DNA of 64,000 nt from a virus (IMGVR_UViG_3300010398_001198:58664-122663), one strand, 5' to 3'. Positions 319 to 64,000 are shown, counted from the stretch's first letter. A program made the numbers and translations. The notes: generated from the sequence alone by a model not told the origin.

Positions 319-618
319 CTAAGCTACCCGCCACTGGTGCTGCTGTGCCGCCATCCGCGCTTGCGGCGAGCCCCGCGCCTCGTCCGCCTTGCGCACGTCG
401 GCCCAAAACGCCGGGGTGGCGAGTGGGATGCCGAGCTTGATATGCCCGGCCAGATTCTCGGAGCGCCCGCATGTGCACGACCAGGTGATGGATCTATCGG
501 CAAAACCCTCCTGGGGCAGCGTCAGGAGGACGTACTGCGTCACGCGCCACGTACAGATATGGGGCTGGGGCATGGCTCCTCTCCTAACGTCTGCGTAGCT
601 TCCCATGGCACCCGACAC
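319..618 (-). CDS. Hypothetical protein (CTC motif)
   Basis: 99-aa ORF continuing the leftward operon, overlaps HNH 3' end. Confidence 0.4.
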   Translation of the reverse strand: MSGAMGSYADVRRGAMPQPHICTWRVTQYVLLTLPQEGFADRSITWSCTCGRSENLAGHIKLGIPLATPAFWADVRKADEARGSPQARMAAQQHQWRVA

Positions 619-841
619 ACAACGTCACCAGGGCACGCATCGGCGCTTCCCACGGACCACCAGGGACATACCACTTATGATGCACTTGCAACTCCTTCTC
701 CTTTGCCCCACACTCCTGACACGTCCACCGATCCCGCTGCATGACCTCCAGCCGCCGCTTTTGCCACCGCGGGTCACGCAGGAGTTGCTGGTAGCGCGTC
801 GGGCGCGGGCGCTTCGGACGGCGCAGGGCGGTGCGGCTCAT
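584..841 (-). CDS. Small phage-type HNH endonuclease
   Basis: W..KRLEVMQRD.WTCQECG...LQVHH...LVTLCVGCH: CxxC + HNH core + CxxCH. Confidence 0.85.
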   Translation of the reverse strand: MSRTALRRPKRPRPTRYQQLLRDPRWQKRRLEVMQRDRWTCQECGAKEKELQVHHKWYVPGGPWEAPMRALVTLCVGCHGKLRRR

Positions 842-897
842 AGCGCCTCTCCTTCTCCACTCCCAATAGGCTGGGATGCCCTATGAAAACAGGGGCT

Positions 898-936
898 GAA
901 TTAGGGGGGGGTGGTGGCCCCACCCCCCCTTAATTC
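898..936. terminator. Intergenic 17-bp stem-loop, probable terminator/processing hairpin
   Basis: GAATTAGGGGGGGGTGG-TGGCC-CCACCCCCCCTTAATTC (one G.U pair) just 3' of the 960..2000 gene. Confidence 0.5.
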
Positions 937-959
937 CTTACGGACCTTTCTGCCCCTTC

Positions 960-3281: not shown

Positions 3282-3358
3282 GGGTTAAGGTTTAAGGGGG
3301 GAAATGGCCACATGCTCTTCCTCTCTTGCTTAAAACTTAAATCTTAAAACTTAAATCT
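3282..3358. repeat. Heptamer-armed inverted element, copy E1
   Basis: (AGGGTTA/AGGTTTA) arm, spacer, (CTTAAAA/CTTAAAT) arm; supplies the TAA stop of the VRR-NUC gene. Confidence 0.75.
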
Positions 3359-3896
3359 CCCCTGTCGTGTCGGGGAACATATCAGGACGATCGATATACC
3401 AGCAGAGCGCCGTCGCCGCGGCGAGCCAGCCCTGATAGGTGCCGACGTAATGGCCCGCGTGTGCCAGCAAGGCGTGCATGGCCCGTTGGTTGGCATCGGC
3501 ACGACGACCCTGGGCTTTGAGCTCTAACCACATGCCGTGGTAGCCCCGGCGAGCCAGCGGCCAATGCAAATCTGGACACCCTGGACGCACGCCCATCGCC
3601 TTCAGGCGACCCGCGCCGGCCTTGCTCCGGTATTTGCCGTTCGGGATGTGGTAGAGGAGCCGGAGCAGAGGCACCTCACGCACCGCCACCTCATCGACCC
3701 AGCGCAGGAGGGCGATCTGCTCCTCTTCTTCCCACTGCCGCCGCCTGCGCATCGTGTGCCACTTGGTGGCTGGGAGATCGAGGCTCGGCACGGGCATCGC
3801 AGGAGCAGTGGGCGGTGTAGGGCGGGCGGCTCTGCCGTTAGTAATGACATAGCCCCGGGCCGTGAGCAGGTCTTCCATCGTCGTGATCAGGGCCAT
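3351..3896 (-). CDS. VRR-NUC domain nuclease (Holliday-junction resolvase-like)
   Basis: LYHIPNG...LKAMGVRPGCPDL...HGMWLELKA....Q. Confidence 0.85.
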   Translation of the reverse strand: MALITTMEDLLTARGYVITNGRAARPTPPTAPAMPVPSLDLPATKWHTMRRRRQWEEEEQIALLRWVDEVAVREVPLLRLLYHIPNGKYRSKAGAGRLKAMGVRPGCPDLHWPLARRGYHGMWLELKAQGRRADANQRAMHALLAHAGHYVGTYQGWLAAATALCWYIDRPDMFPDTTGEI

Positions 3897-4099
3897 ACGC
3901 CGTCCTCCTCTAGAGCCTCATTGGCCAGCCATTGGCGCAGGGCCTGCCGCTCCATCGCGGTCAGCACCAGCATGAGAAAGGCCACATGCGTCTCCGTTTC
4001 CATGGCGTCCCAGGCTCGCTGGAGCGTCTGCTTGGGCGTGGGGTGCTGCCGGGGCCTGACGCGGGCGGCCCGGCGCGGACGGGGCAGCGGCGCGGTCAT
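3887..4099 (-). CDS. Hypothetical protein
   Basis: 70 aa, overlaps both neighbours (translational coupling). Confidence 0.5.
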   Translation of the reverse strand: MTAPLPRPRRAARVRPRQHPTPKQTLQRAWDAMETETHVAFLMLVLTAMERQALRQWLANEALEEDGVWP

Positions 4100-4380
4100 G
4101 GCGTCTTCTCCCCTGGTGAGCGCCGTCTGACCCGCAGGGCGCGTGTCCAGCGATGACAACAGCACAGACAGCGACGCGGCTCAGGCACGCCGTCAAAGTG
4201 CACCAAATCAAAGGGGTGGACCTGCAGGGCCTGCGCCCAGCGCTCCAGCTCGGCCAGCGTCACCCCTTGTTCCTGGCGCTCGATGCGCTCCAGGCGCCGC
4301 TGACTGGTCTCTAACGTCGCGGCCAGCGCCTCACGCGACTGCTGCCGGCGCACGCACTCGTCAAACAACAACATCTCCAT
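4096..4380 (-). CDS. XRE-family HTH regulator (Cro-like position)
   Basis: SREALAATLETSQRRLERIERQEQGVTLAELERWAQALQV; first gene of leftward operon. Confidence 0.7.
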   Translation of the reverse strand: MEMLLFDECVRRQQSREALAATLETSQRRLERIERQEQGVTLAELERWAQALQVHPFDLVHFDGVPEPRRCLCCCHRWTRALRVRRRSPGEKTP

Positions 4381-4470: not shown

Positions 4471-4587
4471 GCGCAAAAAAATAGCACTATGCGCCTAGGG
4501 GTTTTTCCACAAAGCCAGACACTTCGCCTATTGTTTTTTTCGCTACAGTCCACTATTCTGTGCCAGATTCTGGTACGATAGATAAGC

Positions 4588-4688
4588 AGTTTTAAGCGTT
4601 AAGTTTTAAGTTTTAAGGGGGAGGAGATAGTGTAGGATGGTGCGCATCTGCACCAGTCTCCGACCCTTAACCCTTAACCCTTAAATCT
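4588..4688. repeat. Heptamer-armed inverted element, copy E2
   Basis: AGTTTTAAG-CGTTAAG-(TTTTAAG)2 ... (CCCTTAA)3-ATCT; terminal IR AG(T/A)TTTAAG. Confidence 0.8.
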
Positions 4689-4714
4689 ACGTGGTAGAAG
4701 GAGATCAGGAAGAC

Positions 4715-5653: not shown

Positions 5654-6757
5654 TCACCGCCGTAATCCTGGGCGTCTGCGCTCGCGGGGTTCGGGTTCTT
5701 TCGGTTTCTCTGGTGCCGGCGCGGGTGTCACGGGCCGCAAGAGTGCCCCCCGCGCTTGCCCCTGATACGTCCCGACCACCAGGATCGCCCCATCATTGCT
5801 GATCCCCACACTCCGCTGGAACGTCCAGCCGTCCGCCCCCGTGGTGAGTGGTAACAGCGGCACGGCCTGCCCCTGCTCACACCTGATCGCCTGGGTGATA
5901 TTGCCGGTGGCGGCAAAGCGCCCACTCTGCCCGACCGCCTCATCCGCATCGTTCAAGGCCCCCAGGCTGGTGAATTGATCCCCGGTGACGGGCTCACAGA
6001 GGATCACGGTCCCGTCGTACGCGCGCACAAAGCCACGACTCCCGCTGAGCGCCAGCACTTCACCTGCCACACTCCCAGCCGTGTTGATGGCGAAGCCGAG
6101 ACTGCCCCGACTGGGGGTGGTGACGGGATGGACGTCCGTCTCCCCGCCACTGAGCGGCCAGACGACGGCATGGGTGTCCCCGCCTGGCGTGGCGTCCCAG
6201 CCGACGATGGTGCCCGCCTCGTTGATGCCGAGGCCAAAGCTCGGCCCCTGCGCCAGGAGCGGGAGGATGGTCCAGCCGCTGCCGTCCGAGCGCAGGGCCA
6301 CAATCTGGGTGACGTCGGGATTATCGCCAAAGCCCGCAAAGAGCCCCTGCGTGTTCACCCCACTGGCGGCGGAAAAGAGGATGTCGCCATCCGTCGTGCC
6401 CAGGTCTTGAAACGCCCCATCCTCATTGAGGCCAAACGCGTGCGTGCGGGTGCCGAACGGTCCCAGGTGAAACTGCCCCGCCACGAGCTGCCCCGCCGTG
6501 CCCTGGCCGAACGCGGTGGTAACCTCGGCCGGGAGCGTGAGGATGGTCTGCACGCCATCCTCGGTGAGGAGGATCAGGGCCGTATGGGGGGTCGGCTGCT
6601 GCACCTCGACCTGCACCAGAGCGCGGTGTTGGGCACGGTCGAGGGCCACGGGGGTGACGCCAGGATCGAGGGCGAGCAAGGTATACTGCGCGGGGAAGGC
6701 GTGGGCGCCGCTGACGAGCCCACACAGAAGCAGACTGATAAGGAGCACTGGTCGCAT
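5654..6757 (-). CDS. Secreted HAF-repeat (extracellular repeat) protein
   Basis: Signal peptide MRPVLLISLLLCGLVSGAHA after GGAGG; repeats DLGT..., ASGVNTQG, GLGINEAGTIVG, HAVVW, FAINTAGSVAG, ALNDADEAVG; Pro/charged C-tail. Confidence 0.75.
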   Translation of the reverse strand: MRPVLLISLLLCGLVSGAHAFPAQYTLLALDPGVTPVALDRAQHRALVQVEVQQPTPHTALILLTEDGVQTILTLPAEVTTAFGQGTAGQLVAGQFHLGPFGTRTHAFGLNEDGAFQDLGTTDGDILFSAASGVNTQGLFAGFGDNPDVTQIVALRSDGSGWTILPLLAQGPSFGLGINEAGTIVGWDATPGGDTHAVVWPLSGGETDVHPVTTPSRGSLGFAINTAGSVAGEVLALSGSRGFVRAYDGTVILCEPVTGDQFTSLGALNDADEAVGQSGRFAATGNITQAIRCEQGQAVPLLPLTTGADGWTFQRSVGISNDGAILVVGTYQGQARGALLRPVTPAPAPEKPKEPEPRERRRPGLRR

Positions 6758-7027
6758 GCGAATCCCTCCAGGGCCATCTAGGGCCCACCCACGTTTCCGT
6801 TGCGATTCCTGGACGTGCGTCTCGTAAGCAGGCCTCACGGGCCACATAGGGCCCCACCGGGAGGCGGCGACGTCTGGGGAGAGTGTACGGGCTTTTGCAA
6901 GGGGCTGCGAGGGGCGAGTGCCAGGGGCTGGCCGTCGGGCTTCGAGGGCTACCGCGACCAGCCCGGCATCACGAGGCAGGGCCTCTTGATCGGCACAGTG
7001 TAGCACAGATGCCGGCGCGTGGACCAC

Positions 7028-7297
7028 TCAGGGGGCGCGCCCATAGACGAGTTCGTGCAGGCTGATCTCCAAGGCTTCGGCAATCGCCACGATGGTGGCG
7101 AGGGTGAGGCGGGGATGGCGGCCGGATTCGACCACCGCAATCGTATGCTGGGAGAGTTCGGCGACTTCGGCCAGGCGCGTCTGGGTCCACCCCTTTTCCA
7201 CACGCCGCCCCGCCACCCGGCGACCTATCGGCCCTAAGTTCAGTGGGCGCACCCCAATCCCTTTGGTGAGAGACACTGCTCCTATAAGTATCAACAT
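7028..7297 (-). CDS. XRE-family HTH regulator divergent from the tra operon
   Basis: GWTQTRLAEVAELSQHTIAVVESGRHPRLTLATIVAIAEALEISLHEL. Confidence 0.85.
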   Translation of the reverse strand: MLILIGAVSLTKGIGVRPLNLGPIGRRVAGRRVEKGWTQTRLAEVAELSQHTIAVVESGRHPRLTLATIVAIAEALEISLHELVYGRAP

Positions 7298-7380
7298 AGT
7301 ATCCCTTGCACGTCAAGCGATTCTGCATCCTTGATGGCGTGACGAACCTCCCCAATGCACGCCCGGTCACAAAAAAAAGA

Positions 7381-7409
7381 TTGTACATGATGCCCCGTTG
7401 CTCTACAAT
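7381..7409 (+). promoter_or_regulatory. Probable tra operon promoter
   Basis: TTGTAC-17 bp-TACAAT upstream of the first tra gene (RBS AGGAGA). Confidence 0.6.
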
Positions 7410-7463
7410 GAATGATTATGGTACTCTAATGAGCGAACGATACTAACCAAGAGGAGATGCAGC

Positions 7464-7934
7464 ATGAACCGTTGGTGGACTGGCGTGGCGGTTGCCTGCC
7501 TCATCGTCGGCGTGGGCCTGGCGCCCATGGCCTGGGCGAATACGGTGGCGACCACCGGCCAGGCGGTCCAGATTGGTGGGATTGATGATGCGGCTGCGAC
7601 CGGGTGGAGTTATATGACGGGCATGCCCCTGAAACTCCTGTCGGGAGGTGCCATTGCGACCGGACTGCTCCGTCTCGCGGGGGGCTATCCCGGCCAGGCC
7701 GTCCTGGCGGGGGGGGCTGGAGTCGGTGGCGCGTTTCTCTCGCGCACCGTGGACAGTGCCTACACCGCTGCGGCAGCGGCGACCGGGCTCCTGCAGGGGT
7801 TGCCAAGTGCCCTGCAGGCGTTTCTCGACGGGTTTACGGGCGTGCGTCTGGTGCATGACCCGGTGTTCTGGCTGGCGCTGGCCCTCGTGTTGTTGTGCCT
7901 CCATGGCCTGCGGCAGCATCGTCTGGGCCTCTAA
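7464..7934 (+). CDS. Putative conjugative pilin (TraA/VirB2-like)
   Basis: Signal peptide (..PMAWA) plus Gly/Ala-rich hydrophobic helices; first gene before traL. Confidence 0.45.
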   Translation: MNRWWTGVAVACLIVGVGLAPMAWANTVATTGQAVQIGGIDDAAATGWSYMTGMPLKLLSGGAIATGLLRLAGGYPGQAVLAGGAGVGGAFLSRTVDSAYTAAAAATGLLQGLPSALQAFLDGFTGVRLVHDPVFWLALALVLLCLHGLRQHRLGL

Positions 7935-7982
7935 CCGTGTGCTGGCCCTCTGGTGGACGCAGGGGGCCAGCGAAAGGGCGTC

Positions 7983-8114
7983 ATGGTGCTCTATGGTGAA
8001 CTCACGTTGGTAGCGCTGGTGCTCGGTGGGCTCTGGCTGGCGAGCCTGCGCCACCGGCAGCGCGACCCGAGGAAAGACACGCATGTGGAAACGCTGTCCT
8101 CAAGTGCTCGATGA
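7983..8114 (+). CDS. Possible small membrane peptide (43 aa)
   Basis: MVLYGELTLVALVLGGLWLASLRHRQRD..., overlaps traL start. Confidence 0.3.
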   Translation: MVLYGELTLVALVLGGLWLASLRHRQRDPRKDTHVETLSSSAR

Positions 8115-8358
8115 ACCCATTACCGTCTACGGCGTGGACCTGGATGATGTGCGCAATGTCGGCATGGTCTCGGTGGGCCTCCTGATGCTCCTGCCCCCGA
8201 CGATCTGGTTGCTCGGCACGCTCGTGGGCGGGTATGCCAATTACCGAGGCAAGCGTGGCAAGCCTCCGGGCGCGGTGCTGCACTGGCTGCATGAGATGCA
8301 ACTGCTCCCGCTCCCGGGTCTGTTGCCACCGCGTCCGATGACCTATAGCCCGTGGTAA
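8083..8358 (+). CDS. traL: Conjugative transfer protein TraL
   Basis: LDEP motif, TM segment, KRGKPPGAVLHWL; canonical position before traE. Confidence 0.75.
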   Translation: MWKRCPQVLDEPITVYGVDLDDVRNVGMVSVGLLMLLPPTIWLLGTLVGGYANYRGKRGKPPGAVLHWLHEMQLLPLPGLLPPRPMTYSPW

Positions 8359-8360
8359 GC

Positions 8361-8948
8361 ATGATGCCCTCCTGGATGGACAAATACATCACGACCGAGA
8401 CTATGCAGACCGGCTTGCTGACGGCGCTCGTCTTGAGCTTACTCCTCGCCCTTGGGGGCTGGACCGTGGTCGCCTGGCAGATCCTGCGTGGCCCGCTCGC
8501 CTACCTCGTGCCCCCAGGTGGCCCGGGCCTCGTGCGCCCCGGGGTCCTCGACGATGGGACGGCGCTCGATCTCGCTGAGCGGGTGCTCAAGGCGCGCTTT
8601 ACCTTTACGCCGGCCTCCTATAAGGCCGAGCAAGAGGCGGTCAAACGCTGTCTGGGTGGCGGGGCCGCCGCGGCCCTCACCGCGACCATGGAGCAGGAGC
8701 ACAAACTAGTCAAGCAGTATGAGGTGTTGAGTCAACTCCATGTCGAGCACGCGGAGATTCGGGCCCGGAAACACGGCAAGGTCCTCGTGCATCTCGAGGG
8801 CGTGCGCACCCTCACGATCAAGGCCCTCACGTACCGCGAAGAGTCGATCCATTCGGACATGGTGCTCACGCCGTTCTTTGGCACCGGCGAATGCCGGAGC
8901 ATCCTCATTGAGCAATGGCTGACGACCCCAGACTTGAAGACAGACTAG
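8361..8948 (+). CDS. traE: Conjugative transfer protein TraE (VirB8-like)
   Basis: N-terminal TM, FTFTPASY..Q, V.LEG.RTL; synteny. Confidence 0.7.
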   Translation: MMPSWMDKYITTETMQTGLLTALVLSLLLALGGWTVVAWQILRGPLAYLVPPGGPGLVRPGVLDDGTALDLAERVLKARFTFTPASYKAEQEAVKRCLGGGAAAALTATMEQEHKLVKQYEVLSQLHVEHAEIRARKHGKVLVHLEGVRTLTIKALTYREESIHSDMVLTPFFGTGECRSILIEQWLTTPDLKTD

Positions 8949-8955
8949 GAGGGCT

Positions 8956-9672
8956 ATGAGGACGCTTCTATTGGTGACGCTCCTACTCCTGCCGACCCTC
9001 AGTGGGGCCGCCCGGCTCGTGGCCGTCGATCAACCGGTCAGCGTGCGGCTCGAAGTCGCCCAGCCGACGGCCCTGGTCTTTCCGGAGCCCGTGACCTCGC
9101 TGACCACAGGGCTCACCAAGGAGCGCATCAGCGCGGACTTTGACGGCCCCTACGTCTTTGTCATGGCGAAGGATGCCGAGGTGAGTGGGCGGCTCTTTGT
9201 GGTCGGGGCCAGTGGGAAACTGTATCCCCCCGTCACGTTCAAGGTGACAACGCCCGCCGATGATACCGTGACGCTCACCACCGCCCCGCAGAGCGGGCGG
9301 GGTCCGCTCCCCGCATTTGGGGTGCCCTCCTTGCTCCGGGCGCTGCGGCTTCAGAGCCCTGTGCCCGGCCAGGAGATTGTCGAGGCCCCCGCCCCGACGC
9401 TGCCTGATAGTCGGGTCATCCTGGTACACACCAGCGCCGTGCAGGTGCAGGGAACCATTGGCGCCATCTATCTCGTGCGCAATACCCAGGCCACGGCCCT
9501 GCCGCTCGATCTCCGGATCGGGCGTCTCGAGCCAGCGCTGCCGGACACGCTCGATCTGGGCACGTGGGTCTGGCCGCCCCGGCTGACGATTCGGATGGTC
9601 GCGGCAGACACGGAACTGCTTGCGCCGGGCGCGGCTACGCGCATCTATGTCGTGCTGGAAAGGAGACCGTAA
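8956..9672 (+). CDS. traK: TraK-like outer-membrane core protein (VirB9-like)
   Basis: Signal peptide, PTALVFPEPV, LFVVGASGKLY, GAIYLVRN; synteny. Confidence 0.7.
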   Translation: MRTLLLVTLLLLPTLSGAARLVAVDQPVSVRLEVAQPTALVFPEPVTSLTTGLTKERISADFDGPYVFVMAKDAEVSGRLFVVGASGKLYPPVTFKVTTPADDTVTLTTAPQSGRGPLPAFGVPSLLRALRLQSPVPGQEIVEAPAPTLPDSRVILVHTSAVQVQGTIGAIYLVRNTQATALPLDLRIGRLEPALPDTLDLGTWVWPPRLTIRMVAADTELLAPGAATRIYVVLERRP

Positions 9673-10872: not shown

Positions 10873-10881
10873 AAGGAGAGC

Positions 10882-14430: not shown

Positions 14431-14434
14431 ATGA

Positions 14435-16997: not shown

Positions 16998-17005
16998 GAG
17001 GGGTT

Positions 17006-18484: not shown

Positions 18485-18491
18485 GACAGGG

Positions 18492-54440: not shown

Positions 54441-54506
54441 CTGGACGCTCCACCCTGGGGTAGGTCGGATCTGGATACCCCACCCTGGACGCTCCACCCT
54501 GGGGTA
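54441..54506 (+). repeat. Two 22-bp direct repeats 44 bp apart
   Basis: CTGGACGCTCCACCCTGGGGTA at 54441 and 54485. Confidence 0.75.
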
Positions 54507-54602
54507 CCCCGCCTGGGACTAGGACAGCCAGACTGCCCCAGCCTGCGCTGCCCCGCTCGGGACTAGCGCGGGTGCGGGTAGAAGACTTGTGTCTAAGAAC
54601 AT

Positions 54603-54696
54603 GAGACCGAGACCAAGACCAAGACCAAGACCCGAGACCGAGACCCGAGACCCGAGACCGAGACCGAGACCGAGACCAAGACCAGAGACCAAGACC
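54603..54696 (+). repeat. Tandem hexamer array (R-AGACC x15)
   Basis: GAGACC/AAGACC units with occasional 1-nt spacers. Confidence 0.95.
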
Positions 54697-54886
54697 AGAG
54701 AGCTATGCTTACCACTATGCCGATGAAAAGAAGATCGCTTGCCACTAGGAGCCACTAGGAGCCATGCAAGAACGTTGTGCTACTGTGCCATGCCTGCAAA
54801 GACAAACGGCACTAGGATTGCTCGCTAGTGCCGCTTCGCTGTTCGCCTATGCTGTTATGCCGATGAAAGACGCTGGTATGGTGTCC

Positions 54887-55150
54887 CTATCCCCGTAGCC
54901 GCAACGTACATGCGCCATCTGCCGTGCTATACGTGCAGTCTATGTCGAATTGCTCATTCCTGTATGTCCATGCCGTTCGCTCTAAGGTTACGCTGGACTT
55001 CCCTGTTACCAGCGTGACGTATGCAGGATAGATACCTTTGGGCCATCCTAAGCTTTTTGCCGACGTCCAATAGATCCCTTTGCCTATGCTAGACTCACAG
55101 TCTGCACTGTCAATGCTCCACACTGCGCTTGTGATCCGATGCCTTGTCAT
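54887..55150 (-). CDS. Hypothetical protein
   Basis: 87 aa, atypical codon usage. Confidence 0.5.
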   Translation of the reverse strand: MTRHRITSAVWSIDSADCESSIGKGIYWTSAKSLGWPKGIYPAYVTLVTGKSSVTLERTAWTYRNEQFDIDCTYSTADGACTLRLRG

Positions 55151-55203
55151 GCCGATTATCCCCTATGCCGATGTGCGCATGCCTTATAGACCATCCTAGC
55201 GCC

Positions 55204-55244
55204 AAAAAAAGAAACTCCGCAGTGCAACCTACACACTGCGGAGT
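55204..55244 (-). terminator. Rho-independent terminator
   Basis: ACTCCGCAGTG/CACTGCGGAGT stem followed on the minus strand by TTCTTTTTTT. Confidence 0.85.
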
Positions 55245-55270
55245 CTCAGACCATCTCTGATACTACGGTA

Positions 55271-56992
55271 CTACGCTTGCATGCGTTTTTCGTACCGCGC
55301 GCGCGCATGGAACACCAATTTTGCTGCGCGCACATGATCGCCTTCACACAAGCCGAGACGTTTGGCAATTGCCGTGTTCCCCATGCCTTTGACCAGCAAT
55401 GCCTCTACCTCCCGTACCTCATGCTCCGATAACTCTTTGCCGCGTGCGGATGTGACAGCCGTAGCACTACTGCCATGCCGATGTACCTCTACCATGCCAT
55501 TGCTTGACGGTGTAGCGGCAACCTTGCGCACAACCCCAGTATCCTTCTTTGCCTTGCTCGCAACCTTGACATAGAGCAAGCCAGTATTGAACGCACGCGC
55601 CAGTCTTTGATCCCGCTCTGCTTGGGATAGCGCCGTATTGCCGATGATCGCATACAGCGTATTGAGCCGGAGTCTCATCTCACTATCGATCACAACCACA
55701 GCACGCGCCTTGCTCTGTGCCGCCTGGGCCGCCGATACCGCTTCTTGACACGCTTTGACACGTTTTTTTGCCTGTAAGACCTTGATTTGTACGTCTAAAT
55801 CCTCCTCATCTGCAGCTTGCGCCGCTTCTTGTGCCGCAAACAGCGTGTCTTGTGCAAGCTGCAATGCCGTTTCCGCTTCTTGCACTGCTTTGTCTGCCTC
55901 AGTAGACGCTGTATCTAACACTGTCGCATCCGCGCAAGCGATAGACCGTACATCGGCATCCGGGACGAGCGCGCTATAGTCGATAACGCTATCCTGATAC
56001 TCTGCGCCGCTCGCTACATCGGCATACGACACACTAGGAGCCACTACAGACGCCATAGGAGCCACACTAGGAGCCATAGGAGCCACACTGCTCCCAGACA
56101 GCGCGTGCCATCCATTCGCACCAACGGACAAAAACCGCGTACCATCCCTGTATTGATCCCGCTGTACCGTTTCCTTCTCCTTCGGACACGACACCATGCG
56201 CACAACCTTCCCGTTGTACATGCCGATATGAGAGTCTAGGATCATGGTTGCCGGCAGATCACCGAGCGGATTTGTCGTATACAGCAAAACATGCTCGGTT
56301 GCCTCTACACAGTCCAGCATAGCCTTATCGCTGGTTGCACTGTCCATACCATTATCCAGCAGTGCCGCATTATCGATATTCCCCCGTGCGAGCATCTCCT
56401 CATGATCGCTTGCCGCGCTAGCGCTATCGTCTGCTACCAACTCCGCTAAGTATGCCGCGCTATCACTTCCAGTACTTCCGCCTATCTCTTCTGCACAGAT
56501 CACACAATGCAAACCTATCGACCCATGTTTGCTGCATGTTATCTCTACACTCTCGTCTAACAACTCCGCTAAGTACGATGCGCTCTCATCTTGTGCCGCT
56601 TGCTCTGCGATAATCGCTTGCACGTCCGCACTGTGCCGCGTGTCTTGCTCTGCGCTACACCGTGCTAGCGCTTGCCGATACGCCCCTACCTTGTCGTCTG
56701 CACTGCCAAGTACCGTCTCCGCTACACTGCCATTGTGTACGCCATATACCGCGTATGCATGGTCTGTGCCTGTGCTGAACCGCAGATGATGAAATCCGCC
56801 TAGCTGTGCCGCATCTCTAACGGCATGTTGCATCAAACCCTCGTTTCGGTCTACCTCTACCGCTACCTCTACCGCGCTACCATCATGCCATACCATATCC
56901 AGAGTCTCCTTCCTTTGCGCCAGACTTGCCGCAATGTAACCAGCATAGACCGTGCTACCAGATACCGCTTGATGTGTCGCTACTGTTGCCAT
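55271..56992 (-). CDS. 573-aa orphan: acidic repeats, coiled coil, C-terminal HTH-like end
   Basis: Own promoter, RBS AAGGGA and terminator; SAxYLAEL x2, SVAPMA repeats, EVEALL.KG...TAIAKRLG. Confidence 0.75.
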   Translation of the reverse strand: MATVATHQAVSGSTVYAGYIAASLAQRKETLDMVWHDGSAVEVAVEVDRNEGLMQHAVRDAAQLGGFHHLRFSTGTDHAYAVYGVHNGSVAETVLGSADDKVGAYRQALARCSAEQDTRHSADVQAIIAEQAAQDESASYLAELLDESVEITCSKHGSIGLHCVICAEEIGGSTGSDSAAYLAELVADDSASAASDHEEMLARGNIDNAALLDNGMDSATSDKAMLDCVEATEHVLLYTTNPLGDLPATMILDSHIGMYNGKVVRMVSCPKEKETVQRDQYRDGTRFLSVGANGWHALSGSSVAPMAPSVAPMASVVAPSVSYADVASGAEYQDSVIDYSALVPDADVRSIACADATVLDTASTEADKAVQEAETALQLAQDTLFAAQEAAQAADEEDLDVQIKVLQAKKRVKACQEAVSAAQAAQSKARAVVVIDSEMRLRLNTLYAIIGNTALSQAERDQRLARAFNTGLLYVKVASKAKKDTGVVRKVAATPSSNGMVEVHRHGSSATAVTSARGKELSEHEVREVEALLVKGMGNTAIAKRLGLCEGDHVRAAKLVFHARARYEKRMQA

Positions 56993-57051
56993 GTTCCATT
57001 CCCTTTCAGTGTGGTATGCCGCAGAGCACTATGCCCGCGGGCACGAAAAAA

Positions 57052-57079
57052 ACTATATACTGAAGTATAGCCATTGCAA
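57052..57079 (-). promoter_or_regulatory. Promoter for the 573-aa gene
   Basis: TTGCAA-16 bp-TATAGT. Confidence 0.5.
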
Positions 57080-57544
57080 GAGAAAGTGTAAAGCTATCGC
57101 CTAACGAAAAGTGAAGAGAAGTGCAGGTGAGAGGAAAGATTTTTCGCGGTACTCCTGCGTACCATGTGCCGCTACCTTCTTCCACTTCCATACACTACGC
57201 TCTCCTGTGCACTTAGGATATTCCACTATGTACCAGCAGGAGCACGATGCGCCAGTACTGGTAAGGGATACGCTAGCGCGCTAGCGGGGGATATGGGACT
57301 GACTGGTAGCGTACTGACTGTGGTATGGGGGAGGTGTGGGCTAAGGTGTTCCCTGAAAATTCCACACTTTTTTTCCTCGCATGCCATCTCTGGTACGACC
57401 TATGCAATATAGATATCTTCTTCTATAGGTACGCTGCACTGCTCGCATGCACCACACTGCCACACTGCCACATCGGTCCCGCGTACCATCCCAGTCCTAC
57501 ACCGATGCCTCTACACCGATGCCTCTACCGGAGCCTACACCTGC

Positions 57545-57659
57545 ACCACACTGCCACACCGGAGCTCCACTGTGCCGCGTACCACACCGGAACTACACCG
57601 GAGCTTGCCTCTACCACACTGCCACACCGGAGCTCCACTGTGCCGCGTACCACACCGGA
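57545..57659 (+). repeat. 47-bp perfect direct repeat with nested CACACCGGAG units
   Basis: ACCACACTGCCACACCGGAGCTCCACTGTGCCGCGTACCACACCGGA at 57545 and 57613. Confidence 0.9.
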
Positions 57660-58276
57660 GCTTGCCGCAGTGCGTACCAGGCATACCCTGCCAAAAGTGT
57701 ACACGGGGTATACCGCTGGTAAACTAGCAGCTAGCTACTAGCTATCTTCTATCTAGCTGCTATCTTCTCTCTCGCTGCTATCTCGCAGCTAGTACGTCCG
57801 ATGTGGGATACCCCTGGCCGCACTGGTCTGGCGGGGGCGTTCTGGTAGAATTGTGACATCTCGGCCTAGCCTGCGTGTGAAACCTGTTCCGAGGTACGCG
57901 CCCCTAAACACGCCCTCTCCCTGCACGCCCGTGTGTCCCACAGCCTCGGCCCCACAGCGTCACGCCATGGTCCTATGCGCATGCGGGTGGGCGTGCGGGC
58001 GGGGGAGCCCGTGGGAGTGCGGGCAGTGGTGGCGGGCGCGGTGCGGCTCGCAGGCCAGTGCGGGTGGGCGGTGGTGGTGGGACGGGCGGGGGAGCCCGGC
58101 GCGAGGCGCTTGACAGGGGGGTGGGGTGAGGCGGACACTAGAGGCGGGAGCAGGGGTCGCGGGTGGTCGTGCTGGTGAGGGACGGCGCTCGCGCCAGCGT
58201 GGGGCGGAGCACGCAGGGGGCAGGGGCGGTACGTCCTGCGGCAGCAGCCCATCGTGACGAAGAAGGAGAGAGCGGG

Positions 58277-58654
58277 ATGGCAGCAGGGGTGGGAGAGGAC
58301 AGGGTCGCATATGCGCGACGGATGGCGGCGTTACTGGACGAGTGGAACCGGGAGGGGGCCGAGGGGGGACAGGTGGTGGACGCCCAGAGGCGGTACCGGT
58401 GGAGTGTGGACATGGGGCGGCGGCCAGCCGGGGTGGTGCTGGAAGAGTTGGGGCAGGGGGAAGAGTCAGAGAGGCGGTATACGACGTCTGCGGCGATGGT
58501 GGCGGGGGGGCGGTTGCACGTGGAAGAGTTGGTCCCGTTACCGGGGTATATCTGTGAGGGGTGTCTGGATGCGCCGGCGGTAGGATGGCAGGGGGCGCCG
58601 TGGGGGGGCGAGATGGCGGTGTGTGCGGGATGTTGGGGGAGAGGTGGGCGATGA
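58277..58654 (+). CDS. Hypothetical protein with CxxC...CxxC
   Basis: CEGC...CAGC; coupled to the methylase. Confidence 0.55.
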   Translation: MAAGVGEDRVAYARRMAALLDEWNREGAEGGQVVDAQRRYRWSVDMGRRPAGVVLEELGQGEESERRYTTSAAMVAGGRLHVEELVPLPGYICEGCLDAPAVGWQGAPWGGEMAVCAGCWGRGGR

Positions 58655-59997
58655 GTGAGCGGCGGTGGAAGGTGAGTATTGTCGGGCATGGGGAAGTGGA
58701 TCCGCGGACGATCGTGTTACATCCGCAGAATCCGAAGGCGCATCCGCGGGAGCAGCATGAGGTGGTCGGGGCGTCGTTAGAGGAGTTAGGGTGGTTAAAG
58801 GGGGTGATGATCAACCGCGTGACGGGGCATTTACTGGATGGGGAAGAGCGGGTGACGCTGGCGATCGCGCAGGGGGAGCGGACGGTGCCGGTGGACTATG
58901 TCGAGGTGCCGGCGGAGCACGAGGCGACGGTGCTGCGGGTGTTGGACCAGAGTGCGGCGCTGGCGCGGATGGACGTAGAGCGGTGGCGGGCGTTAGCGGC
59001 GGGGAGTCCGGCGCCGGTGTCGGGGGTGCTGCGGGCGTTTTTTGCGGAGCAGATTCGGGCGGAAGAGAAGGGGCGGGGGGCGCGGCGGAATGCGGCGGGG
59101 GAGTGGGAAGGGACGTGGCGGGATGGGGTGAAGGAGATGGAAGGGGCGTTAGCGGCGGCGGCGGACGCGGTCCGGGGGGAGTGGGGGGTGGCGCCAGGCC
59201 AGTTGTGGGCGTGTGGGGAGCACCGCGTCATCTGTGGGGACAGCCTGGACGCGGGGGTGGTGCAGCGGGTGTGTGGGGAGAGGCGGGTGGCCCTGGTGGT
59301 GACGAGTCCGCCGTACAGTGTGGGGAAGGGGTATGAGGCGGGGGAGACGGTCGGGACGCAGCGGGGGTTGATTGAGGGGTTAGGGCGGCGGTGCGCGGCG
59401 GTGGTGCAGCCGGGGGGATTTGTGGTGGTGAACTTTGGGGATCCGTGGGCACGGGAGACGGCGGGGCCGTGGACGGGGAGTGCGCGGGCGTGTGTGTATC
59501 CGATGGGGCGGGAGTATTGGCGGGCGTGGCACGAGGAGTTAGGCTGGGACCTCTATGCGTGCCGGGTGTGGGTGAAGCCGTATGCGCGGCTGCGGCAGCC
59601 GCTGTGGACGTATCACACGAGCTTGGCGCATCAGGGGGAGTGGGAGCAGGTGTGGACGTGGCGGTTGCCTGGGGGGGAGGGGGAGCAGGTGTACACCTGG
59701 GACGTCAGCGCCCATAGTGTGTGGAGTTCGGTGGGGGAAGTCGATAGTGATGGGGCGGGGCCGTGGGCGCACTGGGGGGCGGGGTTTCCGCAGTGGGTAC
59801 CGCGGCAGGTGCTCAGGGCGCATAGTGCACCGGGGCAGGTGGTGTGGGAGCCGTTTCTGGGGGCGGGAACGACCCTGTTGGCGTGTGAGGAATTGGGGCG
59901 CACGTGTGTGGGGAGTGACCGGGATCCATGCGCGATCGCCCTGACATTACAACGGTTTAGGGACGCGACGGGGGTGAGGCCGGTGCAAGTGGGGTAG
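58651..59997 (+). CDS. ParB-N + N4/N6 DNA methyltransferase (phage packaging-region type)
   Basis: HPQNPKAH...GHLLDG(E)ER ParB-like; HRVICGDS, VTSPPY, FP, EPFLGAGTT. Confidence 0.88.
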   Translation: MSERRWKVSIVGHGEVDPRTIVLHPQNPKAHPREQHEVVGASLEELGWLKGVMINRVTGHLLDGEERVTLAIAQGERTVPVDYVEVPAEHEATVLRVLDQSAALARMDVERWRALAAGSPAPVSGVLRAFFAEQIRAEEKGRGARRNAAGEWEGTWRDGVKEMEGALAAAADAVRGEWGVAPGQLWACGEHRVICGDSLDAGVVQRVCGERRVALVVTSPPYSVGKGYEAGETVGTQRGLIEGLGRRCAAVVQPGGFVVVNFGDPWARETAGPWTGSARACVYPMGREYWRAWHEELGWDLYACRVWVKPYARLRQPLWTYHTSLAHQGEWEQVWTWRLPGGEGEQVYTWDVSAHSVWSSVGEVDSDGAGPWAHWGAGFPQWVPRQVLRAHSAPGQVVWEPFLGAGTTLLACEELGRTCVGSDRDPCAIALTLQRFRDATGVRPVQVG

Positions 59998-60022: not shown

Positions 60023-60694
60023 ATGCCACTGCCGAATAACACGCAGTACTGTACTGCCCATAAACGTGATGGCTCTGTGTGTACGAATGTCGTCGTCAAA
60101 GGCATGCGGACCTGCCGCATGCATGGGGGCAAATCCTTACAGGGGCCGGCGAATCCGCACTATCGGACGGGGCGGTATTCCAAGAGTTTGCCGGCGCAAT
60201 TAGCCGTCCGCTATGAAGAGGCGCGGGCGAATCCGCGGCTGTTGTCGTTAGACGATGACATTGCGCTGACGGAAGGGCGCTTAGCGGCGTTGCTGGAGCA
60301 GGCGGAGACGGGGGAATCGGGGGCGTGCTGGCGGGCCTTGCGGGGGGAGATGGATGCGTTTGAGGCGGCGTTAGCGCAGGGGGACATGGACGGCATGCAG
60401 ACGCACTTTGCGGCGATGCGGGGCCTGGTGCAGCGCGGGGCGGCGACGGTGGGGGTGTGGGACGAGGTGCAGGCGGTGCTGGTGACGCGCACGCGGCAGG
60501 TGCAGACGCAGGTGAAGACGTTGCAGAGCATGCAGCAGATGCTGACGGTGCAGCAGCACATGCTGATGGTGGGGGCGCTGACGGACGCGGTGGTGCGGGC
60601 GGTGCAGAAGTATGCCGAGGTGGGGGCGGGGCGGAAGATTCTCAGGGACATCCAGGCCGAGTTTACGCGGCTGGTGACGTTAGAGGAGCGCTAG
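60023..60694 (+). CDS. HGGxSTG-domain protein, probable terminase small subunit
   Basis: CTAHKRDG..C...CRMHGGKS..GP.NP.YRTGRYSK; directly upstream of terL. Confidence 0.75.
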   Translation: MPLPNNTQYCTAHKRDGSVCTNVVVKGMRTCRMHGGKSLQGPANPHYRTGRYSKSLPAQLAVRYEEARANPRLLSLDDDIALTEGRLAALLEQAETGESGACWRALRGEMDAFEAALAQGDMDGMQTHFAAMRGLVQRGAATVGVWDEVQAVLVTRTRQVQTQVKTLQSMQQMLTVQQHMLMVGALTDAVVRAVQKYAEVGAGRKILRDIQAEFTRLVTLEER

Positions 60695-60696
60695 CG

Positions 60697-63474
60697 ATGG
60701 ACGCGATTCTCCAGCCCAGGACGCGGACGCAGGGCTCGCCGATGGCGCAGGGGCTGGCGCATGCGGCGCGCATCTTAGGGGCGGCGCTGGGCGAGGGACC
60801 GGCGGTGTCGCGGCGCACGGAGGTGTTTCGGGCGCTCCCGGACGATCCCATGCGCTGGTTGCTCAGCACCTTTCCCACGTACTTTCAGAATCCGCGCGGG
60901 GAGTTTGTGCCGTTGGCGGCGCATCACGAGGCGTTCTGGCGCTGGCTCTGGGCGCTCAGACCGGGGATGGCGGCGCGCACGTTCATCGCCATCTGGAGCC
61001 GGGCCGGGGGCAAGTCGACGTCGCTGGAACTCGGGTCGGCGTGTGTGGGGTATTTTGGGCTGCGGCGCTATGTCTTGTACATTTGCCATGAAGAAGGGAC
61101 GCCGATCTATGATCCAGCCTGCGGGGCATGGATGGCAGTGGAGAGGCATCCCACGGCGCAACGGCGACGCGGTGATGGTCTCGAAGTCACCATCGCGGGC
61201 TTGCCATTTGCGCCGGAAGTGGTCACGCCTGAGCATCGGTACCTCGCGAGGCGGATAGCGCGGCGGGACCGTGGGCACGGCAAGCCGGTGGACATCCACT
61301 ATGGGCGTCCGCAGTGGATTGAGGCGCAAGATCTCGACTGGAACACATGGATTGGGTATCCCATTGACCGCACCGAGGACGCGACGTATCCGGCGTTGAC
61401 GCGATGGAGTCGGCAGACGCGCCAGCAGGAAGCGTGGGCCTGTCCGTTTTTCGAGGATCCGGAATGGTGGTGGCTCTTTGGGCTGTGGTGGGGCGATGGG
61501 ACCCTGGGAGGCGCCGGGAATGCCCAGATAGCGTTTAGCTGTGCGACGAAATATCCGCAGATTCGGGAGCGTCTGATTGATTGTCTCGAGGATGCGGAGT
61601 TGCCGTGGCATGAAGTGCCGGCGCCGGATGGCGCGGCCTGTAGTAGCATTTCGTTTTGTCATGCGCCCCTGGCGCGGTGGCTCCAGACGTGGCGGGCTGG
61701 GCGCAATCGGAAACAGCCGCCGGGGTGGGTTGAACGGTTGCCGCTGGAGTATCAACGGGCCTTGGTGCGTGGCTATTGTGATGCCGACAGTGCGCAGAGT
61801 GATCGGGGCATGGCGTTGACGAGTATTCACCTGCCGGGTCTGCTGGCGGTGCGGCGCATGTTGATGCGGTTGGGGGTGCCGTCCTATCTCAGTCGGCAGA
61901 CACGGGACCGGGATTTTAGCTATAAGGGACGCGTCTATCAGGTGCAACCGTCGTATACGCTCAGAGTCGAAGAGGGGCGAGAGGCGTTAGGCTATGAGAC
62001 TGGGGCGGCGCCCAAGGATGCGGTGCGCGATCTCTTTATCAGCGATGGCTGCTTATGGTCGCGTGTCCGGGAGGTGGAGGTGGCCTACGATCGGACGTTT
62101 GTGCCGATCCAGACCGCCAGCGAGACGTACTATACGCATGCGGGGCTCTCGCATAATTGCGCCACCCAGAAGCAGGCGGATGATCATGTGGCGAACGTGG
62201 CGACGCTGTTAGAGGGGTTAGGGGTGGAGCGCGCCATTAACCGCTATGGGTTTTCACGGGGCTGGAATATCAATCGCTTACGGACGGCGGATGGGTATAC
62301 GCAGGATGCGATTGGGCTTGATGCGGCGGCGCGGGGGGTGCGCATCGATGAGTTTCGCCCGGACGGCGTGTTTCTCGATGAACTCGATGAGCAACTCGAT
62401 ACGGCGGCGACGATTGCCAAGAAGATTGACGTGCTGACGCGGGCGCTGCTGCCGACGGGGGATGCGGCGCTGACGGTGGCGGGGGTGCAGAACCTGCCGA
62501 ACAAGGACGGCATCTTTGCGCAACTCGCCGATGGGCGGGCCGAGTTTTTGATGGACCGCTACGTCTCAGGCCCGCATCCGGCGCTGCGGGGCTTAGGCGA
62601 GCAGGACTGGTATCAGCAGGTGCGGGGGGCGGACGGGAGTACGGCCTTTCGCTTTGTCGGGGGGACGCCGGTGTGGGCCGGGCAGGACCTGGCGGCGTGT
62701 ACGGCGTTGCTCAACACGATTGGGCCGCGGGCGTTTGAGATTGAGTGTTTGCACCGCATTGGGCGCTTAGCGGGGAGTATCTTTCAGCGCGCCTGGTTTG
62801 GCATCGTGCCGGACTGGCCGCGAGGGTGTCGGCAGGTGCGCTACTGGGACTTTGCGGCGACCGAGGTGGCGGACGAGACGCCCAGGCGGCGGGGGAAGGA
62901 TCCGGACTGGACGGTGGGCCTCTTGCTCGGGGAGTGGCGGGGGCAGTTCTGGGTGCTGGACGTGCAGCGCGTGCGACTCTCGCCGGACGGGGTGGAAAAG
63001 CTGGTGGCGCAGACGGCGGCGCTCGATGGGCCGAGCGTGGAAATCTGGTTGGAAGAAGAAGGGGGGAGTAGCGGCAAGGCGGTGACGGCGACGTACCGGC
63101 AGCGCGTGCTGGTGGGCTATACGGTGCGCACCTGGCACACGACGGGGAGTAAAGGGGAGCGCGCCAAGCCGGTGAGTGCAGCGGCGGAAGCGGGCAATGT
63201 GATGCTGGTGCAGGCGCCGTGGAATGCGGCGTTTGTCGACGAGGTGGAGAAATTTGGGCTCCCGGATGTGCACGATGATCAGGTGGATGCGCTGTCGGGG
63301 GCGCACTATGCGCTGACGCTCGGGCAGACGTGGTTGTCGAGTGAGTTGTCGCTGACGCCGGCGTTGGAGCGCATGACGCAGCAGGGGATGGAGGCGCGGG
63401 CGCAGACGGCGGTGTTACTGCCGGCGCTGGCGGGGATGTGGGGGGTGGCGGACTGGGAGGAGGAGGTGGCATGA
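60697..63474 (+). CDS. terL: Terminase large subunit containing an intein (925 aa precursor)
   Basis: WSRAGGKST Walker A, FLDE Walker B, RYWDFAAT, DWTVG, HDDQVDALSGA nuclease domain. Confidence 0.92.
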   Translation: MDAILQPRTRTQGSPMAQGLAHAARILGAALGEGPAVSRRTEVFRALPDDPMRWLLSTFPTYFQNPRGEFVPLAAHHEAFWRWLWALRPGMAARTFIAIWSRAGGKSTSLELGSACVGYFGLRRYVLYICHEEGTPIYDPACGAWMAVERHPTAQRRRGDGLEVTIAGLPFAPEVVTPEHRYLARRIARRDRGHGKPVDIHYGRPQWIEAQDLDWNTWIGYPIDRTEDATYPALTRWSRQTRQQEAWACPFFEDPEWWWLFGLWWGDGTLGGAGNAQIAFSCATKYPQIRERLIDCLEDAELPWHEVPAPDGAACSSISFCHAPLARWLQTWRAGRNRKQPPGWVERLPLEYQRALVRGYCDADSAQSDRGMALTSIHLPGLLAVRRMLMRLGVPSYLSRQTRDRDFSYKGRVYQVQPSYTLRVEEGREALGYETGAAPKDAVRDLFISDGCLWSRVREVEVAYDRTFVPIQTASETYYTHAGLSHNCATQKQADDHVANVATLLEGLGVERAINRYGFSRGWNINRLRTADGYTQDAIGLDAAARGVRIDEFRPDGVFLDELDEQLDTAATIAKKIDVLTRALLPTGDAALTVAGVQNLPNKDGIFAQLADGRAEFLMDRYVSGPHPALRGLGEQDWYQQVRGADGSTAFRFVGGTPVWAGQDLAACTALLNTIGPRAFEIECLHRIGRLAGSIFQRAWFGIVPDWPRGCRQVRYWDFAATEVADETPRRRGKDPDWTVGLLLGEWRGQFWVLDVQRVRLSPDGVEKLVAQTAALDGPSVEIWLEEEGGSSGKAVTATYRQRVLVGYTVRTWHTTGSKGERAKPVSAAAEAGNVMLVQAPWNAAFVDEVEKFGLPDVHDDQVDALSGAHYALTLGQTWLSSELSLTPALERMTQQGMEARAQTAVLLPALAGMWGVADWEEEVA
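61084..62157 (+). other. LAGLIDADG-containing intein (358 aa) in TerL
   Basis: N-terminal C (CHEEGTPI), C-terminal SHN followed by Cys+1; blocks FGLWWGDG and RGYCDADS. Confidence 0.92.
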
Positions 63475-63842
63475 GCGCGCCCGGGGAAGTGCCGGTGCCT
63501 GAGGAGATCGCGGCGTATCTGCGTGGGTGGCGTGCGGGGCTACACACCGTACTGCGGTGGTATACCGTGGGCGCGCTGCTCCTGGTGGGCCTATGGCTGG
63601 GGACGGCGGTGCTCCAGTGGCAGACGAACCAGGCCCAACGCGGGCTGCTTGAGACCTACGACCGGCGCCAGGAGCAACGCGTCATGCGGGCCACATGCCA
63701 TGTGTTGCTCTACGCCATCGACCCGGCGACCACGACGGGCTTTAACAGTGCGGCGCAGACGTGTACGGTGGAGCGGGAGGATAAGCCCACGCTGCACCTG
63801 CGCTGGCAGGGCGGGCACTGGACGAGCGAGCGGCCGCTGTGA
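63471..63842 (+). CDS. Membrane-anchored hypothetical protein
   Basis: One TM helix, coupled to terL. Confidence 0.55.
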   Translation: MSAPGEVPVPEEIAAYLRGWRAGLHTVLRWYTVGALLLVGLWLGTAVLQWQTNQAQRGLLETYDRRQEQRVMRATCHVLLYAIDPATTTGFNSAAQTCTVEREDKPTLHLRWQGGHWTSERPL

Positions 63843-63965
63843 GGGGGACCAAGCAAAAGACGGGGAGAGACCATAACCACACGCCTCCCCTCCGCCCCGC
63901 CCAGCCTATACGGGTAGGGCACGGATGTCAACCAGCGGTCGTGAGCCGCCAGAAAGGGAGCGCCC

Positions 63966-64000
63966 ATGTCTGAGCCGATCACCAATGGCACCGCCTATCC
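63966..64000 (+). CDS. Start of next gene (partial; possibly portal by position)
   Basis: RBS AAGGGAG + ATG; only 11 codons visible. Confidence 0.3.
   Translation, partial: MSEPITNGTAY

Follow-up and report, generated by a model that had tools for sequence, protein, structure and literature searches.

A tailed soil phage genome with a resident F/G-like type IV secretion system and no detected relaxase

Phages and conjugative elements are usually seen as two separate vehicles of horizontal gene transfer. A 64,000-nt stretch of viral DNA (IMGVR_UViG_3300010398_001198:58664-122663, here called the window) carries terminase genes together with an operon resembling a type IV secretion system (T4SS), and a first-pass annotation had described it as one element, a candidate conjugative phage or phage-plasmid. 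Do both gene sets belong to one virus, and could that virus conjugate? The data were best explained by a tailed phage of the contractile-tail type with a resident, inherited T4SS like those of mating-pair formation classes F and G (MPF-F/G), a coupling ATPase and a linked recombinase, which may give it a contact-dependent route beside virions.

The window is the final 64 kb (bases 58,664–122,663) of a single 122,663-bp IMG/VR virus record. Genes were called by GC3 bias, and the proteins were scanned against Pfam, PHROGs and NCBIfam. The genome holding the window (G0) was recorded as linear, with a GC content of ~63% and a CheckV completeness of 77%; no terminal repeats were found on the 122,663-bp contig and no tRNA genes in the window. 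As the first-pass annotation had suggested, circularity was checked. Both contig ends were matched by an independent ENA assembly contig (k141_6024120, 111.7 kb, locus L085), whose first 4,925 bases corresponded to the last 4,925 of G0 (99.2% identity) and whose bases 8,950–20,591 corresponded to the first 11,642 of G0 (99.98% identity). The end and the start of the G0 contig were thus joined by 4,024 bp of L085 carrying a Portal_Mu gene, indicating a circular map of ~126.7 kb with the contig break within the portal region. The window thus makes up one half of a tailed soil phage genome of roughly 127 kb. HNH endonuclease genes crowded the head region and their presence varied by assembly, which is probably why the IMG contig broke at the portal:

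L001 255-905 and 4952-5707, head-region HNH genes
L085 6533-7750, 9204-9854, 13901-14593 and 17235-17855, head-region HNH genes

To examine the junctions between phage and T4SS genes, Logan per-run contigs from four soil runs were aligned to window positions 6001–26000. Contigs of runs X1 (36.8 kb), X2 (27.1 and 32.0 kb) and X5 (17.8 kb) crossed both T4SS borders, and depth was flat inside versus outside the block (~13, 12.6 and 18.6, respectively); these are independent assemblies, not independent biology, as the runs may include the source sample. Run X3 covered the interval only patchily and no meaning was attached to it. A 70.6-kb ENA contig had an identical TraU gene and agreed in the order of the genes as far as those of the recombinase and resolvase. 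No direct repeat longer than 15 nt linked the two flanks of the T4SS; the longest word common to both was 15 nt, in coding sequence, and three 14-nt words were common to both, against ~0.6 expected by chance. No GC step was seen at the borders of the block, so the first-pass statement that att-like repeats and a compositional break were lacking held. Internal repeats in a metagenome contig might raise the suspicion of a chimeric assembly that joins phage and plasmid DNA of one soil, but the same joins occurred in Logan assemblies of three samples and in at least two separate ENA assemblies, depth was even across the borders, and a diverged relative (G1, below) closed on itself with both modules, which makes a chimera extremely improbable. 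These results showed that the phage genes and the T4SS were on one physical molecule. The earlier claim of one element is strongly supported by the circular closure, the assemblies across the borders, the even depth and the diverged relatives that keep both modules; neither att repeats nor a coverage step nor a chimeric join was seen, and structural genes were present.

The following genes of the window bore on its phage nature:

584-841, weak HNH gene, sub-threshold match
4096-4380, minus strand, cI/Cro-type helix-turn-helix (HTH) regulator (HTH_31/HTH_3)
36346-38016, minus strand, D5/P4-type primase-helicase (D5_N E 2.6e-29, DUF5906, Pox_D5)
58561-59997, plus strand, N6/N4 DNA methylase (Pfam scan)
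60023-60694, plus strand, small terminase candidate, by position only: a 223-aa gene directly 5' of the large terminase gene
60697-63474, plus strand, large terminase (TerL), a 925-aa gene call within a long open reading frame (ORF) opening at 60457 (Terminase_6C E 4.7e-13, LAGLIDADG_3)

Among the genes named by the first-pass annotation, TerL, the primase and cI/Cro-type regulators (4096–4380 and 7028–7297) were confirmed; the small terminase was a positional assignment, and HNH and VRR-NUC gave sub-threshold matches in the window. The LAGLIDADG domain of TerL (about residues 431–486 of the long ORF) lay between the ATPase and nuclease parts and is probably an intein. A TraC homologue elsewhere (P0020) likewise bore a LAGLIDADG insert.

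The first-pass annotation had proposed extending the contig in search of structural genes, and portal, capsid and tail genes were all found on the one circular map. In L085 the order was methylase, 223-aa gene, TerL, 123-aa gene, Portal_Mu (PF06074, 507 aa) and HNH (405 aa), followed by small ORFs, HNH, protease, 562-aa gene, 133-aa gene and capsid; the portal gene lay off the G0 contig and was present only in the 4-kb joining segment. The upstream 58 kb of the G0 contig encoded an XkdF-type prohead protease with HNH genes, a major capsid protein of the lambda-E type (phrog_1005, E 5e-67), a set of tail proteins (sheath, baseplate J, members with SLT and LysM domains, and a fibre bearing an S74 chaperone), and further fibre proteins of the LamG and beta-helix kinds. 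By every sequence test (TerL, portal, capsid with protease, tail), G0 is predicted to be a tailed phage (Caudoviricetes).

The plus-strand tra operon (8026–23304, ~15 kb) resembled an MPF-F/G-like T4SS with a type IV coupling protein (T4CP):

7028-7297, minus strand, HTH_3 regulator, divergent from the tra operon
8026-8358, plus strand, TraL-like protein with one membrane helix (PF07178 E 0.008, sub-threshold)
8352-8948, plus strand, TraE-like protein with an N-terminal transmembrane helix (36% identical to G1_065)
8956-9672, plus strand, TraK-like protein with a signal peptide (TraK_C E 0.006, sub-threshold; the L082 homologue is TraK_C)
9673-10872, plus strand, TraB/TrbI (VirB10-like) protein (PF03743 E 2.3e-12)
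10882-11409, plus strand, lipoprotein candidate at the TraV position, hydrophobic N-terminus ending FGAC
11409-13967, plus strand, TraC/VirB4 ATPase, 852 aa by the public gene call, ORF opening at 11160 (P-loop_TraG, TraC_F_IV)
13964-14434, plus strand, conserved 156-aa tra gene with no assigned role
15726-16997, plus strand, Cys-rich secreted protein at the TraH position (weak TIGR03755; invariant Cys in six homologues)
17051-18484, plus strand, polytopic membrane protein, TraG_N-like by topology
18617-18979, plus strand, pilin candidate, 120 aa with two helices, from topology alone
19199-20458, plus strand, TraU (PF06834 E 1.4e-21; TIGR03756 E 6e-13)
20428-21450, plus strand, three small ORFs (116, 118 and 108 aa; gene calls), at the site of the MOBH relaxase in basal relatives
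21454-23304, plus strand, T4CP of the TraD/VirD4 class (PF10412, PF12696, PF02534; Walker A/B intact)
23301-23681, plus strand, conserved lipoprotein 3' of the T4CP gene, lipobox LTGC (50% identical to G1_050)

Four proteins exceeded the Pfam cut-offs: TrbI/TraB (E 2e-12), TraC/VirB4 (E 3e-16), TraU (E 1e-21) and T4CP (E 4e-18). The traL-E-K-B-V-C-H-G-U-D order given in the first-pass annotation was thus clear for TraB, TraC, TraU and the T4CP, while the other names came from weak matches, homologues or topology: among the accessory mating-pair formation genes TraB and TraU were clear, TraL and TraK sub-threshold, and TraE, TraV, TraH, TraG and the pilin assigned by homologues or topology. The TraE counterparts by position in L006 and L082 matched PF05309; the TraV-position gene (159–174 aa) was conserved in all relatives; the 156-aa gene recurred at the matching position in L005, L081, L082 and L091; and Walker A and B of TraC were invariant across 22 homologues. 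The homologue of the divergent HTH regulator (G1_068, blastp) adjoined the tra operon of G1, and HTH genes stood at the matching position in L006, L081 and L082. NCBIfam gave no name for eight of the 10 tra proteins, PDB profile searches found no relative of the TraH-position and TraG_N-like proteins, and TraW, TraN, TraF and TrbC were not recognised in the tra system of G0. Because of the outer-membrane-type parts (TraK/TraB/TraV-like) and the lipoproteins, a diderm host is a reasonable inference, in agreement with the first-pass annotation. Naming the host through capsid relatives in metagenome-assembled genomes (MAGs) of Blastocatellia, Methylococcaceae and Dehalococcoidia was tried and rejected, these being too distant (~50% identity).

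Was this pairing of phage and T4SS genes peculiar to one genome? The best non-self TraC matches were 45–56% identical and all metagenomic, and the best plasmid (PLSDB) or cultured-phage TraC was at most 27% identical; megablast of the tra region against PLSDB gave no match. Single-protein TraC scans of IMG/VR and a TraC profile scan of the GTDB species genomes found no relatives, but a TraC profile scan of IMG/VR retrieved two records, G1 (141,598 bp, 99-bp terminal repeat, CheckV completeness 100%) and G2 (98,897 bp, 88% complete). G1 encoded TerS, TerL, portal, capsid protein and tape measure, together with a syntenic T4SS and recombinase 36–56% identical to those of G0, so that the co-occurrence of terL and traC, put forward earlier as a check, was found in a complete genome. 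G1 and G2 had in common TerS and tail genes (32–50% identity, including a 1,700–1,900-aa protein at 50%), and their T4SS genes with the recombinase were 24–47% identical, a divergence similar to that of the tail genes, as expected if the modules were inherited together. The TraC proteins of G0, G1, G2, L006 and L081 formed one derived clade (Shimodaira–Hasegawa-like approximate likelihood-ratio (SH-aLRT) support 98) in a quick maximum-likelihood (ML) tree rooted by distant TraC-like proteins, which is provisional. L006 (134 kb) and L081 were large contigs of the clade whose structural genes were not reached; one 10-kb walk along L006 met small early-type ORFs only. By comparison of gene content, the predicted T4SS was shown to be retained across a clade of diverged large phage genomes.

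Between G0 and G1 the structural genes in common were of the fibre type only, and the sheath protein and Baseplate_J family of G0 had no match in G1 or G2; the tail core of G0 either differs from theirs or is too diverged to match. An exchange of head and tail cores among members of a T4SS-bearing lineage, or a move of the T4SS block from one phage backbone to another, would each account for this. Had an unrelated phage or prophage recently received a separate integrative and conjugative element (ICE) or a conjugative plasmid, the two parts would be independent elements side by side. Such an event would fit the tyrosine recombinase at one end of the tra block, the head modules that differ between G0 and G1 with the T4SS common to both, and the complete 50–63-kb genomes of capsid relatives without TraC. 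Yet att-like repeats and a GC step were absent, the block had no relaxase and was therefore not a self-sufficient ICE, G1 and G2 had both kept the pairing, their tail genes and T4SS having diverged equally, and a genome-specific repeat and a phage HNH gene lay inside the operon. Such a recent insertion is thus improbable.

The repeat was an element whose variable centre lay between four GTTTTAAG-type heptads and, in inverted orientation, three or four CTTAA(A/C)(A/C) heptads. Nine copies were found on the whole G0 contig (84, 3344, 6579, 16236, 51786, 61948, 63253, 77157 and 98215), those in the window at 3285, 4590, 18494 and 39552 and the other five lying in the upstream 58 kb. The earlier report of copies at 3.3, 4.6, 18.5 and 39.6 kb was therefore correct and could be extended by the five upstream ones:

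3285-3373, heptad-armed palindrome, degenerate copy with a weak fold
4581-4690, plus strand, heptad-armed hairpin (GTTTTAAG x4 ... CTTAACC x3), just 5' of the gene at 4691; RNA fold z -3.4
18485-18600, plus strand, heptad-armed element in the tra operon, right arm degenerate, fold no better than shuffles
39543-39670, heptad-armed hairpin, fold z -4.9

The element was present in intergenic sites among both the head and the tail genes, in the regulatory region, next to the DarB-like gene and within the tra operon, where it lay just upstream of the pilin candidate. The element was absent from G1 and G2, indicating that it is a genome-specific mark tying the tra operon to the rest of G0. Eight copies were folded, of which six formed long hairpins with better scores than shuffled sequences (z -2.7 to -6.1). 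The hairpins lay mostly just 5' of ribosome-binding sites, between co-directional genes, and their arms tolerated changes of the G-U type. They resemble long double-stranded RNA stems, as at a site of RNase III-type processing or of regulation, more than operators bound by proteins.

The phage gene inside the operon resembled the HNH genes of the head region:

14545-15726, plus strand, phage-type HNH homing endonuclease in the tra operon (phrog_3377 E 1.4e-99; low GC)

In run X1 the segment 14431–16081 (1.65 kb), containing this gene, was swapped for 352 unrelated letters, and dense single-nucleotide polymorphisms were seen just 5' of it (14037–14358). The HNH gene of the tra operon is thus polymorphic and missing in one soil strain.

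Can this T4SS transfer DNA? In six-frame searches with TraI_2 (MOBH, PF07514), Relaxase (MOBP/Q, PF03432) and TrwC (MOBF, PF08751), even at E 1, no relaxase came up in any of the three genomes (G0, G1 and G2). None was found either when the G0 genes and 110 G1 proteins were scanned against Pfam, MOBV, MOBT and MOBC profiles not being searched separately. Relaxase-bearing members of the TraC family were found on a contig of a Tectimicrobiota MAG (L082/L084) and a 64.7-kb JGI contig (L091). In L084 and L091 TraU was separated from the T4CP by a TraI_2 relaxase and a gene of 205/209 aa, and the T4CP was not followed by Integrase_1. These relaxase-bearing TraC sequences were basal in the quick ML tree and belonged to non-phage relatives. 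The Tectimicrobiota contig also carried ParB and a type I restriction-modification system. On tblastn with the two TraI_2 proteins and the partner gene no remnant was detected in the phage clade; the first small ORF after TraU was homologous to a 119-aa gene of L091 and was conserved. The T4CPs of the clade kept Walker A and B and were ~50% identical to the relaxase-linked T4CPs. Comparison with the basal relatives thus showed the MOBH relaxase to be cleanly lost from the phage clade, as judged from gene content. VirB4/TraC and the T4CP were present, but with no relaxase found in G0, G1 or G2, the description of a “full conjugative” T4SS overstated the case, and spread by conjugation was not supported, MOBH, MOBP/Q and MOBF relaxases being absent in the six-frame searches.

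Directly beyond the T4CP and its lipoprotein lay a recombinase gene:

23801-24712, plus strand, tyrosine recombinase of the Integrase_1 family (PF12834/PF12835, Phage_int_SAM_2), catalytic R-K-HxxR-H-Y intact

Integrase_1 adjoined the T4CP in G0, G1, G2 and L006 (the L081 contig ended before that point), and stood next to the T4CP only in relaxase-less genomes. In a marine mobilome study, PF12835 was among the enzymes frequent in T4SS elements lacking a relaxase (PMC11104534). A complex prediction for the cytoplasmic part of the T4CP with the recombinase scored 0.01, which is no evidence either way. The recombinase gene was followed by a 770-bp G-rich non-coding gap (24713–25482, GC skew ~+0.15). 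Convincing site-like repeats were absent from this gap, where a recombination site, a transfer origin or an RNA gene may lie.

According to the favoured reading, that of a phage with an inherited T4SS and a contact-dependent route beside its virions, the T4SS would build a pilus and channel in lysogens or infected cells, and the coupling protein would feed a substrate to the channel. The likeliest substrate would be the DNA of the phage itself after processing by a non-canonical nickase, for which the T4CP-linked Integrase_1 recombinase would be the leading candidate, giving contact-dependent transfer in addition to virions. The resting form could be either a plasmid or an integrated prophage. 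A bolder proposal, that these phages transmit their genome both by virions and by an F/G-like T4SS, the MOBH relaxase having been replaced by Integrase_1 or another phage DNA-processing enzyme, is tentative and rather unlikely as it stands; if true, such dual-route phages would be the first truly conjugative viruses and would reveal a new relaxase class.

Several observations weighed against an inherited transfer system. The capsid and terminase proteins of G0 and G1 gave no BLASTP match, and with head genes that could not be aligned the T4SS may have moved between backbones instead of descending strictly vertically. The capsid relatives whose complete 50–63-kb genomes were without TraC stood at 45–56% identity. 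Several tra gene names came from sub-threshold matches. The complementarity of relaxase and recombinase was seen at two versus four loci. The Integrase_1 family was common on 5–8-kb plasmids, mostly typed as non-mobilisable, so the enzyme fits an ordinary resolution or integration role as well as that of a nickase. Self-conjugation of G0 through its T4SS can only be inferred from the gene set.

The T4SS might also work without moving the phage genome, by delivering proteins, releasing or taking up DNA, or making pili that help cells adhere, aggregate or touch prey or host cells, and so serve as a lysogenic-conversion or infection-aid module. No relaxase was found in G0, G1 and G2, TraI_2 being cleanly lost in comparison with the basal relatives, and the motifs of T4CP and VirB4 were kept; both proteins are also required by effector-translocating T4SSs. 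On the other hand, no candidate effector or toxin-immunity genes were seen beside the operon, and the recombinase stayed linked to the T4CP. What F/G-type systems containing TraU and TraH-like components are known to transfer is DNA and not protein, which also counts against this explanation. A function of this kind, though conceivable, was considered unlikely.

Is G0 essentially a virus, or a plasmid? Besides HTH regulator pairs and the tyrosine recombinase, it carried the following:

27323-27898, minus strand, small serine resolvase (PF00239 E 3e-39)
39987-45023, minus strand, DarB-like antirestriction methylase-helicase, 1678 aa (phrog_10089 E 0; Helicase_C, ResIII)

P1 DarB is packaged into virions. 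A large or decaying conjugative plasmid that captured a prophage or a tailocin-like cluster could account for the Integrase_1 recombinase, the serine resolvase, the DarB-like protein, the ArdC-N domain in G1, and the circular map without host junctions. However, neither ParA (AAA_31) nor ParB_N was found in G0, and no plasmid Rep family turned up in its Pfam scans, which gave the D5/P4-type primase-helicase only. The packaging, head and tail gene set was complete and intact, and there were multiple homing HNH genes and a terminase intein, features typical of lytically replicating phages. CheckV and IMG/VR also class G1 as a complete virus. A plasmid origin of this sort is therefore very improbable, and with no ParA or ParB in G0 the “phage-plasmid” label is tentative. 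Each of the two relatives had one of these without its partner, a ParB_N domain in G1 and a ParA-like gene in G2. Host junctions were found in no assembly, and a plasmid-prophage, an integrated prophage and virion or replicating DNA look alike in the present data.

As named here, the genes and their order (TraL-E-K-B-V-C...TraU...T4CP) were those of MOBH-associated MPF-F/G systems, both F-like (SXT/R391, IncA/C) and G-type (ICEclc/PAPI-1/ICEHin1056). G0 matched TraC_F_IV, TraU, TrbI and TraK_C, as these systems do, and weakly the ICE families TIGR03755 and TIGR03756, and the nearest non-phage relatives of its T4SS carried the same relaxase type, TraI_2 (MOBH). Unlike them, its TraC was at most 27% identical to any PLSDB TraC, it had no relaxase, and it sat in a tailed-phage genome. 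From these resemblances, the G0 T4SS may work like MOBH-associated F/G-type conjugation systems.

G0 also resembled phage P1 in being large and temperate-looking, with a circular map, a tyrosine recombinase (cf. Cre), a resolvase and a DarB-like protein (phrog_10089), but unlike P1 it had no ParA, ParB or plasmid Rep that could be found. To our knowledge, P1 and other described phage-plasmids are without mating-pair formation genes. In the literature searched, the sole “conjugative phage-plasmid” found was p1002-1 of E. coli, a cointegrate of a known conjugative plasmid and a P1-like phage-plasmid, each half of which keeps a free counterpart in related isolates (10.1101/2025.03.14.643293). G0 was like p1002-1 in having phage and conjugation genes on one replicon; unlike it, its T4SS was without a near plasmid relative (TraC ≤27%), lacked a detected relaxase and was kept across diverged phages. 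For a tyrosine recombinase acting as nickase there is a precedent in TcpM of the Clostridium perfringens plasmid pCW3, a conjugative relaxase of tyrosine-recombinase fold, as cited within PMC11104534. The intact recombinase of G0, linked to the T4CP where the relaxase is missing, would be like TcpM by role; unlike TcpM, Integrase_1 enzymes are also frequent on small plasmids, for which resolution is the likelier function.

What is new here is a phage lineage with a resident, predicted F/G-like T4SS lacking a relaxase. Its phage clade (one complete genome and one closed in this work) keeps a mating channel and a coupling ATPase under apparent selection, and phage and conjugation toolkits can coexist stably in one virus. 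The virus may thereby have a second, contact-dependent passage of DNA or proteins between cells. If the T4SS moves the phage genome, such phages would call for a new view of their host range, dependence on receptors, limits of capsid size and evasion of defences, and virus/plasmid classifiers would mislabel them. The loss of MOBH with retention of the T4CP gives a concrete place to seek a non-canonical relaxase, and both this and contact-dependent phage transmission are now directly testable.

Some further features were observed. G1 also encoded a TET-associated glycosyltransferase, DUF5131, the ArdC-N antirestriction domain and a Gp3-like recombination directionality factor, genes that suggest hypermodified DNA and antirestriction functions. 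In the window of G0, a MoxR-type AAA ATPase (bpMoxR) and a vWA protein (47877–50863, minus strand) were separated by a 105-aa ORF, a pairing that we assign to MoxR-vWA ternary conflict systems. A repeat-rich 4.6-kb region of low GC (53954–58560; 0.54–0.60), with a poorly coding 573-aa ORF ending in HTH_38, preceded the methylase and terminase genes. Tandem arrays were seen in it ((GAGACC)n at 54603–54701, 21-nt units at 56035 and 29–68-nt units at 57440–57660), and the GC skew flipped sharply from -0.22 to +0.46 within it. The region may be an origin or a pac region.

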